From a virus (lineage: Duplodnaviria > Heunggongvirae > Uroviricota > Caudoviricetes): 26,326 bases of DNA. Below, one piece after another: positions 2,340-15,164 of the stretch (positions are counted from its first letter, which is position 1; each line of letters begins with the position of its first letter). The position numbers and the translations under genes were made by a program. The notes under the pieces were generated by a model. The model made no database searches, was not told the origin of the DNA, and was given only the letters and a program-made list of their open reading frames with translations. The stretch lies in the IMG/VR virus record IMGVR_UViG_3300027007_000013; one strand, 5' to 3'.

Positions 2340-2413
2340 GCCGGGAGGGCCCGCCTGGTGCGGGCACGTGGCTGTTACCCACGAGGCGCTTGGTTCGAGT
2401 CCAAGTCCCGGCG
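2340..2413 (+). tRNA. tRNA-Asn(GTT), non-canonical D-arm
   Basis: Acceptor GCCGGGA/TCCCGGC, anticodon stem CGTGG/CCACG, GTT at 2374-2376, T-loop TTCGAGT, discriminator G. G8 and a 5-bp D-stem GCCCG/CGGGC. Confidence 0.85.
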
Positions 2414-2494
2414 CCTTCGAGTATCAGAAAAACGAAACAACTAATATAGCATCACGTCAAAGGTAGAATACCCAAAATGGTAAGAAACATGATA

Positions 2495-2569
2495 GGGCTT
2501 GTAGCTCAGTCAGGCGAGAGCAGTCGACTCCATATCGACCGGTCGGGGGTTCGAATCCCTTCGAGTCCA
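2495..2569 (+). tRNA. tRNA-Trp(CCA), intronless
   Basis: Canonical cloverleaf: GGGCTTG/CGAGTCC, GTCGA-CTCCATA-TCGAC, anticodon 2530-2532, TTCGAAT. Confidence 0.92.
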
Positions 2570-2664
2570 CTGGGACCACATCGCGGCAAATCGCACGGTC
2601 CCGCTAACGATGAGGGTCGCCTGGGGAGGTGACACGTCGTTCGGGGGCCCCCACGATCCCTCAA

Positions 2665-2738
2665 TGGCACATAGTTCAGTCTGGAAGAACGTCCGGCTCA
2701 CATCCGGGCGGTCCCCGGTTCGAATCCGGGTGTGCCAA
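2665..2738 (+). tRNA. tRNA-Val(CAC)
   Basis: TGGCACA/TGTGCCA (U1-A72), anticodon CAC 2699-2701, CCCGG-TTCGAAT-CCGGG. Confidence 0.9.
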
Positions 2739-2871
2739 TCCCCGAAGACCCGGGCCTATCCGGTGACGGGGTCTGCGGCCCTGCTCGAGAGTCGCTAATG
2801 CTTGCGGGCGAACGCGGCCCGTGGGAAAGGCACAAGAGCCAATCGAGAAGGGGGAGCGATCCCCCATCCGA

Positions 2872-2943
2872 GTGCCCGTAGCTCAGTGGTAGAGTCCCTC
2901 CTTTGCAAGGAGGTCGCCCGGGGTTCGAATCCCTGCGGGTACA
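2872..2943 (+). tRNA. tRNA-Ala(TGC)
   Basis: GTGCCCG/CGGGTAC with the G3:U70 alanine identity pair; anticodon TGC 2904-2906. Confidence 0.95.
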
Positions 2944-3029
2944 CTGCGACACGGTGATCGACCCCTGCGCTCCGGCGTACAGATCGACACATCGACAGCG
3001 CCCACGGTGGGAAGTACGTGACACGTCCA

Positions 3030-3075
3030 GTCCTAACTAATCTGTCGGAGCAGACCGTCGGAGATTAGTTAGGAC
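3030..3075. repeat. 14-bp perfect AT-rich inverted repeat in a tRNA spacer
   Basis: GTCCTAACTAATCT (3030-3043) and AGATTAGTTAGGAC (3062-3075), 18-nt loop. Confidence 0.85.
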
Positions 3076-3080
3076 ACGGT

Positions 3081-3155
3081 GGGTCGGTAGCTTAGCCTGC
3101 GCAAAGCGTTCGGCTTTTAACCGAATGACCGGGGGTTCGAATCCCTCCCGACCCG
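3081..3155 (+). tRNA. tRNA-Lys(TTT)
   Basis: GGGTCGG/CCGACCC, TTCGG-CTTTTAA-CCGAA, anticodon 3116-3118. D-loop AGCCTGCGCA lacks the usual GG. Confidence 0.92.
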
Positions 3156-3305
3156 TGGGGCGGTTTGTCTCTGGCCGCTGAGCTCGGTAGTCCCGAACCA
3201 CAAAAGAATCCCAGAGGACGTTGAGTGGACGATCACTCGCGAGTACGCGGGGAGGACGCTTCCCGCAATCAACCCTCATAGTCGGGTATCCCCCGACTTG
3301 CCTAT

Positions 3306-3378
3306 GGCTTCGTAGCTCAGTCGGTAGAGCCCTCGATTTGTAATCGAGAGGCCGGGAGTTCGATCCTCTCCGAAGCCT
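3306..3378 (+). tRNA. tRNA-Thr(TGT)
   Basis: GGCTTCG/CGAAGCC, anticodon TGT 3339-3341, U73. Confidence 0.95.
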
Positions 3379-3385
3379 TCTGACT

Positions 3386-3458
3386 CCGTTCGAGCTCACG
3401 TGGGAGTGAGATACGACTGTAGATCGTACCGCTCCAGGTTCGAATCCTGGCGAACGGA
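3386..3458 (+). tRNA. tRNA-Tyr(GTA), non-canonical D-arm
   Basis: C1-G72 and A73 (archaeal Tyr identity), anticodon GTA 3419-3421, short variable loop. A8 and a 5-bp D-stem CTCAC/GTGAG. Confidence 0.85.
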
Positions 3459-3510
3459 CTCGGGGACCGCGGCTCGGTTGATCCATCATCTCGACCGAGC
3501 AACTCCCCGG

Positions 3511-3643
3511 AGTCGATGCTGATCTCTGAGCGGCATCCGAAGACATGATCGACGGAGTCCCGTTTAGTGTCAGGCGCCGTGGGTAACTGATTAGTAGCAG
3601 CCTACCCTGGCGCCGGGCTTTTCACGCGGCTTCAGCATCGACT
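3511..3643 (+). ncRNA. Candidate structured RNA (multi-branch, 12-bp closing helix) inside the tRNA array
   Basis: AGTCGATGCTGA/TCAGCATCGACT encloses arm 1 (GACAT/GTGTC plus GACGG/CCGTT) and arm 2 (GGCGCC/GGCGCC plus GGGTA/TACCC plus CTG/CAG). Confidence 0.5.
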
Positions 3644-3650
3644 TTCAGCT

Positions 3651-3726
3651 GCTCCAGGAGTCTCCGCTGGCGAGAGATGCCTGACTTTCAATCAGGTGGC
3701 CGTCGGTTCGATTCCGACCTGGAGCA
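3651..3726 (+). tRNA. tRNA-Glu(TTC), non-canonical D-arm
   Basis: GCTCCAG/CTGGAGC, CCTGA/TCAGG, anticodon TTC 3687-3689. G8 and a 5-bp D-stem GTCTC/GAGAT with loop CGCTGGCGA. Confidence 0.82.
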
Positions 3727-3807
3727 CTCGCGCCCATGCCCTGTGGCGCACGAGATCGAAGTAATGGGGTAGCATCGTACGATGACCGGGTGTGCACCCA
3801 CCCTTAC

Positions 3808-3878
3808 GCGTCAGTGATCCAACGGCAAGACAGGAGCCTTCCAAGCTTCAGATCTCGGTTCGATTCCGAGCTGGCGCA
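3808..3878 (+). tRNA. tRNA-Gly(TCC)
   Basis: GCGTCAG/CTGGCGC, A73, anticodon TCC 3840-3842; weak D-stem. Confidence 0.88.
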
Positions 3879-4072
3879 CTGGGGCTGACATCCCAGTACC
3901 ACTGTCCGGCCTATACTCGTGAGCGGCCGAGAAATACCACGAGGGGGTACACCGACCCGACGTAAGAACTGGTAGACGACGATCGCGAGCGGCCTCGAAC
4001 CGATCACCGGGTGCGTTGCCAGCGCACTTCGCAGGTGGCGGGCCACACCTATAGGTCGCGATCTTCGCACGC

Positions 4073-4149
4073 AGTCTCCGGCGCTGCACTGGCGAGCGGC
4101 GACCAGCCTTTGGAGCTGGCGGAGATGGGTTCGATTCCCTCGGAGACTA
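4073..4149 (+). tRNA. tRNA-Gln(TTG), non-canonical D-arm and bulged T-stem
   Basis: A1-U72 acceptor AGTCTCC/GGAGACT (archaeal Gln type), CCAGC/GCTGG, anticodon TTG 4110-4112. 5-bp D-stem GCTGC/GCGGC; T-stem GA(T)GGG/CCCTC with one bulged base. Confidence 0.72.
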
Positions 4150-4198
4150 TCAGGGGCGTTCAACACCGGTAGTAGCCGGTCCCGTTGCGCCCCGCTGT

Positions 4199-4270
4199 GC
4201 CGATGTGGTGTAGTGGCTAACATCGGACCCTGTCACGGTCCGGTCTCGGGTTCGAATCCCGACGTCGGCG
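4199..4270 (+). tRNA. tRNA-Asp(GTC)
   Basis: GCCGATG/CGTCGGC, G73, anticodon GTC 4232-4234. Confidence 0.95.
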
Positions 4271-4335
4271 TGGGGTTGAGTTGCCCCAACTGTAGGCATG
4301 CCGGGCGTTGGCCGGCCCGATATCCACGGCCACGC

Positions 4336-4406
4336 GCTCCTGTGGTGTAACGGAAACATTGTGCCCTCTCGAGGCGCAGCTCGGGGTTCGATTCCTCGCA
4401 GGAGCA
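4336..4406 (+). tRNA. tRNA-Glu(CTC)
   Basis: GCTCCTG/CAGGAGC, anticodon CTC 4368-4370, canonical U8/A14. Confidence 0.93.
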
Positions 4407-4407
4407 T

Positions 4408-4483
4408 AGTCCCGCGGCGTCTGCTGGCGAGACGTGCCGGCCTCTGGAGCCGGAGATCGAGGGTTCGATTCCCTCCGGGACAA
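4408..4483 (+). tRNA. tRNA-Gln(CTG), non-canonical D-arm, A1/A72 mismatch
   Basis: (A)GTCCCG/CGGGAC(A), CCGGC/GCCGG, anticodon CTG 4444-4446. C8 and a 5-bp D-stem GCGTC/GACGT with loop TGCTGGCGA. Begins 1 nt after tRNA-Glu(CTC). Confidence 0.78.
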
Positions 4484-4504
4484 GTTCCCGTACGTTGGGT
4501 ACGG

Positions 4505-4645
4505 GTGTGGGAGACGATCGAGATCGCGACCCGCAAGCAGATCATCGCCCTGGCCGTGGTACTCATCATGGTTGGTGGCGTCATGTTCGGAGGTATAGGT
4601 CTGGATGAACAGAGTGGTTTGGATGAGCCCGCATCGCGCCCATGA
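4505..4645 (+). CDS. Single-pass membrane microprotein (46 aa) within the tRNA array
   Basis: GTG start; MWETIEIATRKQIIALAVVLIMVGGVMFGGIGLDEQSGLDEPASRP has RK followed by a ~20-aa hydrophobic helix and an acidic tail; fills the only unstructured spacer of the array. Confidence 0.6.
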   Translation: MWETIEIATRKQIIALAVVLIMVGGVMFGGIGLDEQSGLDEPASRP

Positions 4646-4677
4646 AATAGTTTGAAAGGGCTCACCGACAGCTACGT

Positions 4678-4751
4678 GGCCGGACTGGTCTAACTGGTTA
4701 AGATTCAGCACTGTGACTGCTGAGAACCGCGTTCGAGTCGCGGGCCCGGTC
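4678..4751 (+). tRNA. tRNA-His(GTG)
   Basis: Genome-encoded G-1 opposite C73; CAGCA/TGCTG; anticodon GTG 4713-4715; one acceptor mismatch (A6/C67). Confidence 0.88.
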
Positions 4752-4808
4752 CTCCGTCAGGTAAATCCACGAACTACATAAAAGTTCGAGGATTTGGCTT
4801 GACACAGA

Positions 4809-4883
4809 TGGGCGATAGCGTAGCTTGGTTATCGCGCGTGCCTTGGGTGCACGAGATCGCAGGTTCAAATCCTGCTCGCCTAA
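4809..4883 (+). tRNA. tRNA-Pro(TGG)
   Basis: TGGGCGA/TCGCCTA, CGTGC/GCACG, anticodon TGG 4844-4846, GCAGG-TTCAAAT-CCTGC. Confidence 0.9.
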
Positions 4884-4958
4884 TGGACTGTGGCACGGGT
4901 CATACGTCCTTCCCGTAGGACACGTATCCTACGGACCATACGGAACAGACACCTCCCC

Positions 4959-5387
4959 ATGTCCACGACAAAGGAGCGACCAGACAACGGTGGGCTGGTC
5001 TCAGTCGGTCAGTCAGAATCGCGCACGAAACACGTAGACGCCGCGCTTGTCGAATCATTTGCGGCGGTCACTGGAGATGAGAATCCGCTCCACCTCGACG
5101 ACGATCACGCCGCCGAGACGATGTTCGGCGAGCGGATCGCCCACGGGATGATCACGGCCGGACTGGTCAGCGCCGCGCTGACGGACCTGGTCGACCCCGA
5201 GGTGGCGACGGTCGTCTACCTCTCACAGACCCTCGAGTTCCAGAAGCCAGTCTACGTCGACGACGAGCTCACTGCGACGGTCGAGATCGTCGAAGATCTC
5301 GGTGGGAGTCGCTATCGACTCCGTACGTATGCAGAGACAGACGTGTCCGTTGTCGATGGTGAGGCGGTGATCTTACTCTCGACATAA
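4959..5387 (+). CDS. MaoC-like (R)-specific enoyl-CoA hydratase (PhaJ type, hot-dog fold), 142 aa
   Basis: Signature FAAVTGDENPLHLDDDHAAETMFGERIAHGM (catalytic Asp/His) and YLSQTLEFQKPVYVDDELT. ATG at 4959 chosen because the longer ORF starts only 6 nt after tRNA-Pro and runs through a hairpin. Confidence 0.92.
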   Translation: MSTTKERPDNGGLVSVGQSESRTKHVDAALVESFAAVTGDENPLHLDDDHAAETMFGERIAHGMITAGLVSAALTDLVDPEVATVVYLSQTLEFQKPVYVDDELTATVEIVEDLGGSRYRLRTYAETDVSVVDGEAVILLST

Positions 5388-5398
5388 CGAACGGACGC

Positions 5399-5474
5399 GC
5401 CCCTGTAGCTCAGCCAGGACAGAGCAGCGGCCTTCGAAGCCGCGTGATCGGGAGTTCAAATCTCTCCAGGGGCT
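5399..5474 (+). tRNA. tRNA-Arg(TCG)
   Basis: GCCCCTG/CAGGGGC, GCGGC/GCCGC, anticodon TCG 5434-5436, A20 in D-loop. Confidence 0.95.
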
Positions 5475-7246: not shown

Positions 7247-8794
7247 ATGGACTTGACGGAGTTCGGTGAGTACCTCGAACAGCTCCAGATAGGAGAGAAA
7301 CCAAAAGACAGCGTCGTATTGAGCGCGCTCGACGACATCGAGCCGACATCCAAGCACTTCGAGTGTGCTATTGCACTTCTGACACGAAAGCCGTACGACG
7401 ACATCGGCGTCGGCAAGCAAACCGTCCGAAAGATAGCGGTCCAGTGCTTCGACGTCTCGATGGACGGGCTTCGCGACCTGGAACGGGAGTATGGTGACCT
7501 ACCAAGTGCGATCGGGCACGCAGACATCGCCACAGACACGCTGTTCTCGAAGCGCGAGATCACGCTGGGTGAGCTCCGCGACGACCTGGACTACCTACGA
7601 CACCACACCGGTCCCGACCAGAAGCGCCGCATCAAAGAGATGCTCGGCTACGAGTCGCCCAAGTGGGTCGCTCATGCGATGCTCGGAAAGAAAGGTGCGA
7701 GTCTCGGTATCGGTGAGAAATCGGTCGTCAAGGTCCTGTGCCAGCACTACGGCGTCGACGATCACCGCCGCGCGTTGGCTCTCAATCCGAGAGTGACACA
7801 ACTCTGTCGGACGATCGTCGACGATAGCGAGTATAACAACGTCATCATGCACCCCTACTGTGGACGGCCGTTCCTCCCGATGCTGGCGAAGTCGAAGCAG
7901 ATCCCGGAAAAGCCACAGGCTGAGTGGATGATCCAGCCCAAGTACGATGGGGCCCGCATCCTCGTCCACTACAACACGGCTGATGACGGCATCCTTCGGG
8001 CGTTCAGCCGAAACGCAAACGATGTGACCAAGAGTCTTCCCGAGCTGCGCGAGCTCGAGGACGTGATCACCGCTGAGGGACAGTACATCTTCGACGGTGA
8101 GGCGATCCCGTACAAAGACGGTGAGCGCCAGCCGTTCCAGCAGGTGATGACGCGATTCGGGCGCGAAGAAGACGTCGACGAGCAAGAGATCGACATCGAG
8201 TTCAAGTTCTTCGACCTGGTCTACGCGAAAAACCAGTGGCCCGCCTACGACGGGGATGTGTCCGAGATGACGACTGGTGAACGATACTTCCTGCTATACT
8301 GGTTGTTCGGGTCGAACCACACTGACTGGATCGCACCATCGTACACGCCCATGCTCGCGGAGGACCTCGTCGGTCACTACCAGGAGTTCTTACGAGAGGG
8401 ATTAGAGGGCGCGGTCGTCAAGCAGGTTGATGCCCCCTACGAGTTCAACCGACGATCGCCCAGCTGGCGAAAGTTGATCCCGGAGAAAGAGAACGTCGAT
8501 CTCAAGGTCGTTGCTGTCCACGAGGGTGAGAACAGTAACGCGGGCAAGGTCGGTGGGATGGAACTGGAGACGGAGGACGGGCACCGTGTCGGACACGTTG
8601 GTGGTGGTATGGAAGGGCACGATGGGTTCGACTGGGATGAGAGAGACGAGCTGATAGACGCGATCGTCGAGGTGTCCTGGCGCGAACTCCAGGAGAATGA
8701 CGATGGGACATGTGCCCTACGGTTTCCGAGCCTGGAAGGGGTGCGCATCGACAAGACAGAGGCCGACACACTCGATAGGCTCAAAGCTCTGTAA
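7247..8794 (+). CDS. lig: ATP-dependent DNA ligase
   Basis: Motif I QPKYDGAR, III FDGEAI, IIIa FKFFDL, IV EGAVVK, V WRKL, VI LRFP...RIDK; truncated N-terminal DNA-binding domain; promoter GAAACACTTAATA about 30 nt upstream. Confidence 0.95.
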   Translation: MDLTEFGEYLEQLQIGEKPKDSVVLSALDDIEPTSKHFECAIALLTRKPYDDIGVGKQTVRKIAVQCFDVSMDGLRDLEREYGDLPSAIGHADIATDTLFSKREITLGELRDDLDYLRHHTGPDQKRRIKEMLGYESPKWVAHAMLGKKGASLGIGEKSVVKVLCQHYGVDDHRRALALNPRVTQLCRTIVDDSEYNNVIMHPYCGRPFLPMLAKSKQIPEKPQAEWMIQPKYDGARILVHYNTADDGILRAFSRNANDVTKSLPELRELEDVITAEGQYIFDGEAIPYKDGERQPFQQVMTRFGREEDVDEQEIDIEFKFFDLVYAKNQWPAYDGDVSEMTTGERYFLLYWLFGSNHTDWIAPSYTPMLAEDLVGHYQEFLREGLEGAVVKQVDAPYEFNRRSPSWRKLIPEKENVDLKVVAVHEGENSNAGKVGGMELETEDGHRVGHVGGGMEGHDGFDWDERDELIDAIVEVSWRELQENDDGTCALRFPSLEGVRIDKTEADTLDRLKAL

Positions 8795-8813
8795 ACCTGT
8801 CGTGTCGGCTTAC

Positions 8814-8826
8814 GAAAATATTTAAC
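8814..8826 (+). promoter_or_regulatory. BRE/TATA promoter with no protein gene at its predicted start
   Basis: GAAAATATTTAAC; a start about 30 nt downstream falls at about 8850, the first base of a long helix. Confidence 0.55.
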
Positions 8827-8849
8827 TCCTGAGACTTCGTAGGTCGAGT

Positions 8850-8966
8850 GTCGCTGACGGGTGCCGTGACGCTCTGGCCGCCGGGTGGTCGCCGGCGGAC
8901 GGGTCCCCGACTCTCTACCCACGGATTCCAACGTCACCACGTAAGACCGGTTTCAGCGACCCTTTT
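8850..8966 (+). ncRNA. Candidate stand-alone structured ncRNA (~115 nt), family unknown
   Basis: Ends pair (GTCGCTGA/TCAGCGAC); inner helices CGG/CCG, GTG/CAC, GTGACG/CGTCAC, CCGCCGG/CCGGCGG, GGGT/ACCC; TATA upstream, TTTT immediately downstream; no credible + strand ORF. Confidence 0.6.
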
Positions 8967-8971
8967 ACACC

Positions 8972-8986
8972 GAAAACTGGTATGTA
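8972..8986 (+). promoter_or_regulatory. Repeated viral promoter motif GAAAACTGGTATRTA, copy 1
   Basis: GAAAACTGGTATGTA, 39 nt before the ATG at 9011. Confidence 0.75.
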
Positions 8987-9010
8987 CGTGACACACCGAA
9001 CCTCAGCATA

Positions 9011-9358
9011 ATGCCCAAGAGTACCACCTTCCGCGTTTTTGGAGGGTTGATAGCTGACTCCCGCGCGTACGTCGACATGAACGTCGGTGGGATCGACAAC
9101 GAAGGGAACATCTACTTGGAGGAAGCGTCTGGCTCGCCGTCTGATTCCCACTCATTCACGCCAGATGAGTTTCGTGAACGGGCAAGAGATGGGCTGATAC
9201 TCGACCGGAACTCGATGCCCAAGACCGACCGATCGATGTGGAAAGCGGTCGACAAACTGGGCGAGGAGAGAGTAAGCGTGGAGCCTGGTAGTGATGTTGA
9301 CCGCCAGTTAGAAACGGCGATAAAGTCGGTGTTTCGGGCGGCGGCTGTCGACTCATAA
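9011..9358 (+). CDS. Hypothetical protein (115 aa)
   Basis: ORF starts at the fixed distance from the repeated promoter motif. Confidence 0.75.
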   Translation: MPKSTTFRVFGGLIADSRAYVDMNVGGIDNEGNIYLEEASGSPSDSHSFTPDEFRERARDGLILDRNSMPKTDRSMWKAVDKLGEERVSVEPGSDVDRQLETAIKSVFRAAAVDS

Positions 9359-9365
9359 ACCCTCG

Positions 9366-9380
9366 GAAAACTGGTATATA
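9366..9380 (+). promoter_or_regulatory. Repeated viral promoter motif, copy 2
   Basis: GAAAACTGGTATATA, 39 nt before the ATG at 9405. Confidence 0.78.
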
Positions 9381-10033: not shown

Positions 10034-10040
10034 ACAATCA

Positions 10041-10055
10041 GAAAACTGGTATATA
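10041..10055 (+). promoter_or_regulatory. Repeated viral promoter motif, copy 3
   Basis: GAAAACTGGTATATA, 39 nt before the ATG at 10080. Confidence 0.78.
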
Positions 10056-10196: not shown

Positions 10197-10373
10197 TTCA
10201 AGCGAAAAGACGCGAGACATGTCGCCAGTCGCCGACCGGTAAGCACCCTCGTTTTGAAGTACAGAATTTTGATATGAGTGGTAACCAGTAACATTTATTA
10301 TAGTTCTTTGCCTACTCTTAATCACTACTCTCCGGGCTACTGGCGTGGAACGGAGGGTGTATCGTGACATCGC

Positions 10374-15083: not shown

Positions 15084-15149
15084 CGAGTTGTTGCGTCGGT
15101 AGATAGACGCCTCTATACACCGTTTTATTACTGTATTCTGATACTATGG

Positions 15150-15164
15150 GAAAACTGGTATATT
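15150..15164 (+). promoter_or_regulatory. Repeated viral promoter motif, copy 4
   Basis: GAAAACTGGTATATT, 42 nt before the ATG at 15192, which opens the fibre module. Confidence 0.72.

Follow-up and report, generated by a model that had tools for sequence, protein, structure and literature searches.

The 26,326-nt stretch of viral DNA studied here (the window; IMG/VR record IMGVR_UViG_3300027007_000013) derives from an uncultured tailed virus that infects haloarchaea. Its genes encode an integrase, an ATP-dependent DNA ligase (7247-8794), a family-B DNA polymerase and a helicase of the UvrD type, in addition to 16 arrayed tRNAs. The nearest cultivated viruses are distant: the polymerase shares about 33% identity with those of tailed viruses of Halorubrum, and the identity of the ligase with its HGTV-1 counterpart is about 30%. 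The identical ligase protein was found on five metagenome contigs, and the virus therefore recurs in nature. Between the stop codon of the ligase gene at 8794 and the next promoter lies an RNA gene (8850-8966, + strand), which is thereby located somewhere between the genes for the ligase and the family-B polymerase; the 16 tRNAs identified by ARAGORN (2340-5474) are 3.4 kb away from it. The features of the RNA gene and its surroundings are the following (all helices and loops refer to the fold described below, and L-numbers to related contigs):

8812-8826, + strand: BRE/TATA-type archaeal promoter of the RNA, ACGAAAATATTTAAC, unique in the window
8850-8857, + strand: 5' strand of helix P1, GTCGCTGA, forming 8 bp with TCAGCGAC at 8953-8960
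8858-8860, + strand: 5' strand of helix P1b, CGG, pairing with 8947-8949
8861-8865, + strand: 5' side of internal loop IL2, GTGCC (RUGCC in the family), with TGCC invariant in all full-length copies
8866-8871, + strand: 5' strand of helix P2, GTGACG, pairing with 8932-8937
8875-8877, + strand: 5' strand of helix P2b, TGG, pairing with 8928-8930, found independently by RNAalifold
8878-8884 / 8892-8898, + strand: hairpin P3, a 7-bp GC stem with loop L3, GTGGTCG, at 8885-8891
8887-8891 / 8908-8912, + strand: proposed loop-loop contact of about 5 bp, GGTCG of L3 with CGACT of L4
8901-8904 / 8917-8920, + strand: hairpin P4, GGGT / ACCC, with a 12-nt loop L4 (8905-8916) that contains a conserved GACTCT
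8921-8927, + strand: junction strand J4/2b, ACGGATT, conserved in all copies except for a C-to-T change in L054 and L067
8928-8930 and 8932-8937, + strand: 3' strands of P2b and P2
8938-8946, + strand: 3' side of IL2, CACGTAAGA, largely conserved (CWCGWAAGA, with A for G in L054)
8947-8960, + strand: 3' strand of P1b (8947-8949), a 3-nt bulge GTT and the 3' strand of P1 (8953-8960)
8963-8966, + strand: oligo-T run TTTT two bases after P1, a likely archaeal termination signal
8971-8983, + strand: promoter word of the next gene, CGAAAACTGGTAT, outside the RNA and 5 nt past the T-run, marking the downstream boundary
8971-8983, 9365-9377, 10040-10052 and 15149-15161, + strand: copies of the promoter word GAAAACTGGTAT, each 25-28 nt before an ATG

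The first-pass annotation of this locus, made from the letters alone, had proposed an undescribed, self-contained viral small RNA gene with a promoter whose predicted start falls on the first base of an 8-bp terminal helix and a TTTT terminator right after the 3' strand. All elements it listed are present in the sequence, and its core inference is supported, with transcript ends predicted from promoter and terminator consensus. The promoter is exactly 23 nt from G8850, where the terminal helix begins, and the TATA-like element of the ligase gene is likewise 23 nt from its leaderless ATG; given this equal spacing, the RNA is predicted to start at 8850. Promoters of the ACGAAAATATTTAAC type are kept in L001, L007, L064 and L054. 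In these relatives the BRE lies 37-38 nt from where P1 begins, and the intervening bases are unconserved, being freely different in the L007 clade. At the other end, the T-run stands two bases past the helix, and every lineage retains CTTTT at the aligned position; in L007, L064 and L054 it lies within the loop of an extra covarying hairpin, which is followed by a second T-run. The window has four copies of the promoter word that follows (CGAAAACTGGTAT / GAAAACTGGTAT), all of them on the + strand, versus 0.19 expected by chance; this word constitutes a promoter class distinct from the generic BRE/TATA elements of the ligase and RNA genes. As the RNA possesses its own promoter and T-run, with the next promoter located downstream, the next gene is independent of the RNA and the unit is closed on both sides. 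Furthermore, since the RNA and the ligase gene share a generic type of promoter, which differs from the viral word found before the following cassettes, the RNA is probably expressed together with the replication genes. In the proposed mechanism, transcription would start at the first base of P1 from this host-type BRE/TATA promoter and would end at the oligo-T run.

An 8-bp inverted repeat, GCCGACAC / GTGTCGGC (8762-8769 and 8802-8809), spans the ligase stop codon. Its arms are identical in L001, with about 7 differences in the 32-nt loop, and the repeat is absent from the L007 clade; it could form an RNA hairpin at the 3' end of the ligase mRNA or constitute a protein site upstream of the RNA promoter.

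Homologues were searched for using the ligase protein and conserved words of the element as anchors, which yielded five distinct full-length versions and one truncated copy, all from uncultured halovirus contigs:

Version 1: the window itself
Version 2: L001/L002/L004, one virus assembled twice, in contigs of 88.7 and 154.8 kb
Version 3: L007, also found as L068, L069 and L071
Version 4: L064, also found as L065 and L066
Version 5: L054, on a Lake Tyrrell scaffold
Partial copy: L067, 5'-truncated, diverged and AT-shifted

The full-length copies score 124-141 bits with the covariance model built for the family (R2). Wherever a contig extends upstream, the element is located just downstream of the same ligase, with a 61-aa ORF in between in the L007 clade, and the remaining copies are on short contigs with the same gene order that start after the ligase. 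In the comparison between the window and L001, its closest relative, the RNA is 94.9% identical, the ligase coding sequence is 74.1% identical (57.6% at third codon positions) and the alignment is lost right past the T-run; sequence constraint on the RNA is thus much stronger than on the neighbouring protein-coding gene.

Two of the contigs deserve separate description. The flanks of the L067 copy (positions 1-90) are near-identical to those of L054, and its RNA has shifted strongly towards AT, with numerous G-to-A and C-to-T changes, and reaches no more than 16.5 bits; the contig ends inside the RNA, and the copy may be a decaying one or a fast-evolving variant. L054 itself belongs to a scaffold of 1,252,619 bp with runs of N, in which the virus-like range (1,210,670-1,219,641) is about 40 kb from the end and holds the RNA together with a zinc-ribbon gene and a ligase shortened to 323 aa; this stretch may correspond to a provirus remnant or to a chimeric scaffold.

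The comparison with these relatives is decisive for the reality of the RNA. Fold energy alone is no better than chance: the window yields MFE z-scores of -0.16 and -0.57, within one standard deviation of dinucleotide shuffles, those of the homologues range from +0.15 to -1.18, and the single-sequence MFE structures disagree with each other. Conversely, the alignment contains eight pairs changed on both sides within the nested helices, or ten when the loop-loop helix is included, and 88% of the cells in the seven distinct rows are standard pairs. For the nested helices, sliding the structure by 1-3 columns gives 0-2 both-sided pairs and 30-48% pairing, and across all slid controls the count is 0-3; among 500 shuffles, at most one matched the observed count of both-sided pairs and none matched the observed covariation score. 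The cells include 18 G.U and only 2 A.C, therefore it is the + strand that is folded, and the strands of the promoter and the T-run agree. These compensatory changes come from five full-length sequences of related viruses and consequently trace to few independent events. Since related viruses keep its shape through paired mutations, we consider a functional RNA almost certain.

The possibility that the locus holds no RNA gene, and that a 47-aa protein ORF (8848-8991), a DNA-level site (origin, att or pac) or a chance intergenic fold accounts for it, was weighed against the same alignment. An open, GTG-started frame does coincide with the predicted transcript start, the fold energies are at chance level, as stated, and the integrase is located 7 kb upstream. 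However, the frame is destroyed by a 1-nt deletion in L001 and a 2-nt deletion in L007, L064 and L054, with a stop after 15 codons in L007, for which a small protein gene was rejected; besides, the frame would yield a strongly basic peptide, in contrast to the proteins of halophiles. The changes are compensatory within helices, and the excess of G.U over A.C is unexpected for a site in double-stranded DNA. As for an origin or att site of the host, this was rejected as well, given that the searched host genomes are without a matching sequence (the patterns found nothing in species genomes, and the matches in Halobacteria are unrelated). Altogether, the probability of the locus not being an RNA gene is close to negligible.

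The fold drawn by manual comparison agrees with that of an independent RNAalifold run, which recovered P1, P2, P2b, P3 and P4 unprompted, and it retains the terminal helix, the nested helices and the 7-bp GC hairpin with loop GTGGTCG that had been noticed by eye. Its architecture consists of a long irregular closing stem (P1, P1b, P2 and P2b) leading to a three-way junction, from which hairpins P3 and P4 emerge. P1 has two pairs altered on both sides (C-G to U-A and U-A to C-G) and three cells with G.U wobbles, whereas P1b is the weakest helix, with 73% of its cells paired and no covariation. P1b is followed by IL2, a conserved internal loop of 5 x 9 nt. In P2 all cells are paired, with one A-U to U-A swap and one U.G wobble, and P2b shows a G-C to A-U change in L054. 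The strands of the three-way junction measure 0, 2 (AC) and 7 nt (ACGGATT).

Hairpin P3 presents both-sided C-G to U-A and G-C to A-U changes in addition to G.U wobbles; its two innermost pairs are poorly kept, and GTGGTC of its loop is invariant across the full-length copies. Three G-C pairs of P4 were predicted by RNAalifold, and a fourth, masked by a gap in the alignment, varies between copies (U-A in the window and in L001, C-G in both L007 and L064, U.G in L054). In the proposed contact between the two loops (L3 GGUCR with L4 YGACU), 94% of the cells are paired, and the diverged L067 keeps four of the five pairs; pair 8891/8908 is G-C in the window, A-U in L007, L064 and L054, and A.C in L001. 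A contact between L3 and L4, either within one molecule or between molecules, is therefore probable as judged from the aligned sequences, with weaker support than the helices have.

The RNA was compared with known classes using the 4227 models of Rfam 15, which include 5S rRNA, SRP, RNase P, Y RNA, pRNA, riboswitches, ribozymes, and C/D and H/ACA sRNAs. At gathering thresholds, only tRNAs were matched in the window; with E-values allowed up to 10, the RNA of the window and three homologues produced only noise (E 0.4-7.6, far below gathering scores), consisting of STnc310 on the GC hairpin and other models on the flanks. In line with the earlier statement that this is not a tRNA, 5S or SRP RNA, the proposed Rfam search thus matched no family. 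An intron-containing or otherwise odd tRNA was rejected, as ARAGORN found nothing at 8850, whether without introns or with introns allowed and a lowered threshold. Host SRP RNAs reach 169-197 bits with the Archaea_SRP model, with which the element scores nothing. By inspection of the alignment, no C/D boxes (RUGAUGA, CUGA) are kept, the CUGA at 8854-8857 being GUCGACG in L007; no H/ACA box is kept, L001 having AAA in place of the ACA past the T-run; a 3-nt bulge with an adjoining GA/AG tandem, as in a K-turn, is absent; and no hammerhead or sarcin-ricin motif is kept. A tandem repeat like those of type III antitoxins was not found, the only direct repeats being imperfect and of 11-13 nt. The 3' end of the RNA resembles the repeats of haloarchaeal type I-B CRISPR systems; the repeat-like GTTTCAGCGACCC, however, forms the 3' side of P1 and changes in step with the opposite strand, therefore it is not a conserved repeat, and a CRISPR-repeat mimic was rejected. 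The RNA family is new, in that no curated RNA family includes it. We found no such RNA described in papers dealing with haloarchaeal viruses, and we know of no structured non-coding RNA described in archaeal viruses besides tRNAs and mini-CRISPR arrays. Considering all of the above, we hold it highly probable that the locus is a genuine gene for a structured RNA, and that this RNA represents a new family.

The family has a narrow distribution and an accessory character. Pattern searches in IMG/VR found the element only in the L002 contig, two exact patterns had no match in 185,579 species genomes, and the model retrieved only seven matches of about 22 bits from 151 Halobacteria genomes, which were mutually unrelated and resembled GC-rich coding sequence. 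The element was not found in the whole HGTV-1 record, in plasmids or in phages, and a search for short C-terminal ligase fragments, aimed at further homologues, came back empty. Loci L003, L005, L085 and a set of 41 others were discarded as chance matches, as was a 34-nt BLAST match inside a gene of L006. No second copy was detected in the window or in the 88-kb relative, for which a template of a diversity-generating retroelement (DGR) or an internal repeat was rejected.

Close relatives with the same gene order are devoid of the RNA, namely L008, L009 and a Halorarum halophilum plasmid whose ligase is 68% identical, hence the RNA is dispensable for this type of virus as a whole. The plasmid locus (L006; CP058532.1, 55149-64681) is on a 149-kb plasmid of a cultivated haloarchaeon, in the order ligase, zinc-ribbon gene, 130-aa gene, Halo_toxin-marked gene and polymerase B, and could be a tractable relative for experiments. 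The restriction of the RNA to one small clade, together with its absence from close relatives, suggests an accessory, host-facing role and not a core one, as is typical of anti-defence functions.

A separate observation concerns the tRNA array, where a tRNA-Tyr and a 133-nt structured spacer (3511-3643) within 3380-3652 of the window are missing from L002, the alignment jumping from 3380 to 3652; this spacer was considered as a member of the family and rejected, since it has no match with model R1.

The gene that follows the element differs between lineages, and the ligase is its only constant neighbour. In the window, a 115-aa ORF (9011-9358) follows as part of an extra cassette (8971-9363, promoter plus ORF), which is absent from the closest relative, L002/L004, where the RNA is directly followed by a homologue of the 9365 promoter and its 70-aa ORF. 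In L007, L064 and L054 a zinc-ribbon gene is located about 250 nt past the element, behind another promoter. Cassettes of L007 (2230-2320), L008 (6240-6320) and L009 (3590-3670) begin with AGTAACACTTATTACA ... GTGGAACGGAG ... ATG, and the window has one copy of GTGGAACGGAG, at 10345-10355.

The arrangement bears on whether the RNA could be a cis-acting leader, that is, a riboswitch-like aptamer with a terminator that gates read-through in response to a metabolite or protein. Its aptamer-like three-way junction, the side-by-side hairpins with pairing loops, the conserved junction and the T-run placed directly after them would all suit such a device, and so would the covarying hairpin and T-run that follow in L007, L064 and L054. 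Nevertheless, we consider it highly unlikely, as the next gene has its own promoter 5 nt past the T-run, the downstream gene is variously the 115-aa ORF, the 70-aa ORF or the distant zinc-ribbon gene, no anti-terminator pairing is evident, and no Rfam riboswitch model matched.

The first-pass annotation had also pointed to a possible Sm-like protein in the block headed by the RNA. This part of the proposal lost ground, because only the window and L001 have the 70-aa ORF in question after the RNA, the zinc-ribbon gene being found instead in L007, L064 and L054, and because it has no LSM Pfam match. Its AlphaFold model is all-beta and of low confidence (pLDDT 63.5), and Foldseek returned no match with E < 0.28; lacking a Pfam match, a significant fold match and a conserved position, the Sm-like partner was rejected. 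No TROVE/Ro or LSM genes were found in the related virus record G002 (88.7 kb, about 72% complete), with TROVE control genomes being positive, and the suggested Y-RNA-like role has no specific support, as neither a Y RNA model match nor a TROVE/Ro gene in that record was obtained. A link to a toxin was likewise rejected: precomputed Pfam tables place a Halo_toxin gene two genes downstream in some relatives, which hmmscan left unconfirmed for L064, and hmmscan found no such gene in the window.

With these findings, our preferred reading is that the element constitutes a stand-alone structured non-coding RNA gene of about 113-117 nt, representing a new family in a small halovirus clade and likely acting in trans by its shape, to which we assign a probability of roughly 0.5. 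Two features favour action in trans by shape. The invariant bases are located in the internal loop, in the junction strand and in two loops, with no single long open stretch, and such a distribution is the one seen in RNAs that offer a surface for a protein or ligand to bind. Moreover, the RNA has a transcription unit of its own, and the next gene has its own promoter and varies by lineage. On this reading, the RNA would act as a platform or decoy that binds a protein of the host or of the virus, and small-ligand binding would be less likely than protein binding. If the RNA gene is taken as real, the pattern of sequence conservation leads us to give a shape-based, protein-binding mode a chance slightly short of even.

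The decoy and anti-defence roles that had been suggested for the RNA are compatible with the data. In a more specific form, the RNA would be a viral counter-measure, an early, compact aptamer-like fold that sequesters a signalling nucleotide or a factor of host defence or translation, or that multimerises via its loops; we regard this as decidedly unlikely, and were it true, it would give archaeal viruses their first described structured effector RNA. Because the RNA is only 115 nt long, it can be easily synthesised, probed and used as bait, which makes its binding partner testable though the viruses are uncultured.

Alternatively, the RNA may be a base-pairing regulatory sRNA whose fold is a stabilising scaffold, with an exposed conserved stretch that pairs with an mRNA of the host or the virus, or with a tRNA or rRNA, and affects translation or stability. 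Stand-alone units from promoter to terminator are found in many archaeal and phage sRNAs, and several short invariant segments are predicted to be unpaired; the candidate seeds would be the 3' half of L4 (CUCU...), the junction ACGGAUU and the internal loop. However, no candidate target emerged: the RNAduplex scan of the window was uninformative, since its scores merely followed GC content, the complement of the conserved junction occurs in the window at chance frequency, and reverse-complement patterns had no match in the 185,579 species genomes. Furthermore, the loop-loop contact would largely bury the invariant bases, and the longest open conserved run is only about 7 nt. We therefore judge an sRNA of this kind unlikely, if still worth serious consideration beside the preferred trans-acting reading.

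Several known RNAs resemble the element in one respect or another. The species 1 and 2 RNAs of phage T4 (rnaC and rnaD) are structured, of about 120-140 nt, and are encoded within the tRNA cluster and cut from its transcript. By this description, they share with the halovirus RNA the condition of being a structured small RNA in a large virus that carries its own tRNA set; in contrast, the halovirus RNA is 3.4 kb from the tRNA array, beside the ligase, and has its own promoter. Kissing-loop aptamers of the purine-riboswitch type and the SRP Alu domain are alike in having two neighbouring hairpins on a closing helix, loop-loop pairs and a conserved junction. Unlike the former, the halovirus RNA is not the leader of one conserved gene, and where the Alu domain has a U-turn of 4-5 nt between its hairpins, the halovirus RNA has AC, within a junction of 0, 2 and 7 nt.

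The pRNA of phage phi29 (RF00044) measures about 117-120 nt and has a long bulged 5'/3' helix, a three-way junction and loops complementary over 4-5 nt. The halovirus RNA is of similar size, has a bulged 5'/3' helix and a three-way junction whose loops proved to be complementary, and is virus-encoded with its own promoter. This anatomy, together with the position between the ligase and family-B polymerase genes, would be in line with a multimerising machine RNA, in which loops pair between molecules to form a phi29-like ring, or with a replication RNA that primes or regulates DNA replication within the ligase-polymerase module. The probability of either appears very slight to us. There is no match to the pRNA model of Rfam, and relatives with the same replication genes do not have the RNA; its sequence is far more conserved than that of pRNAs among their hosts, with junction strands that are highly conserved, the 2-nt linker between P3 and P4 makes pairing within one molecule look feasible, and no AT-rich unwinding element is adjacent. 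To our knowledge, pRNA is restricted to phi29-like phages and goes with phi29-type motors, whereas the halovirus RNA has no known link to such a motor.

The preferred reading, an RNA that would act in trans by its shape, has its counterparts in the VA RNA I of adenovirus, the EBERs of EBV, the Y RNAs and the bacterial YrlA, which are abundant, stand-alone RNAs of about 100-170 nt with an oligo-U end, and which function through bound proteins and not through antisense pairing. The differences are clear: no sequence or model similarity to any of them was obtained (Rfam, E up to 10), and, unlike VA RNA I, the EBERs and the Y RNAs, the halovirus RNA belongs to an archaeal host with a single RNA polymerase and is preceded by a BRE/TATA promoter. 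Regarding the Y RNAs and YrlA in particular, the terminal stem of the halovirus RNA carries a 3-nt bulge, and no TROVE gene was found in G002. What the halovirus RNA does share with VA RNA I, the EBERs, the Y RNAs and YrlA is a general plan, consisting of a small stand-alone gene, a terminal stem formed by the paired 5' and 3' ends, a structured central domain with a junction, and a predicted oligo-U end.
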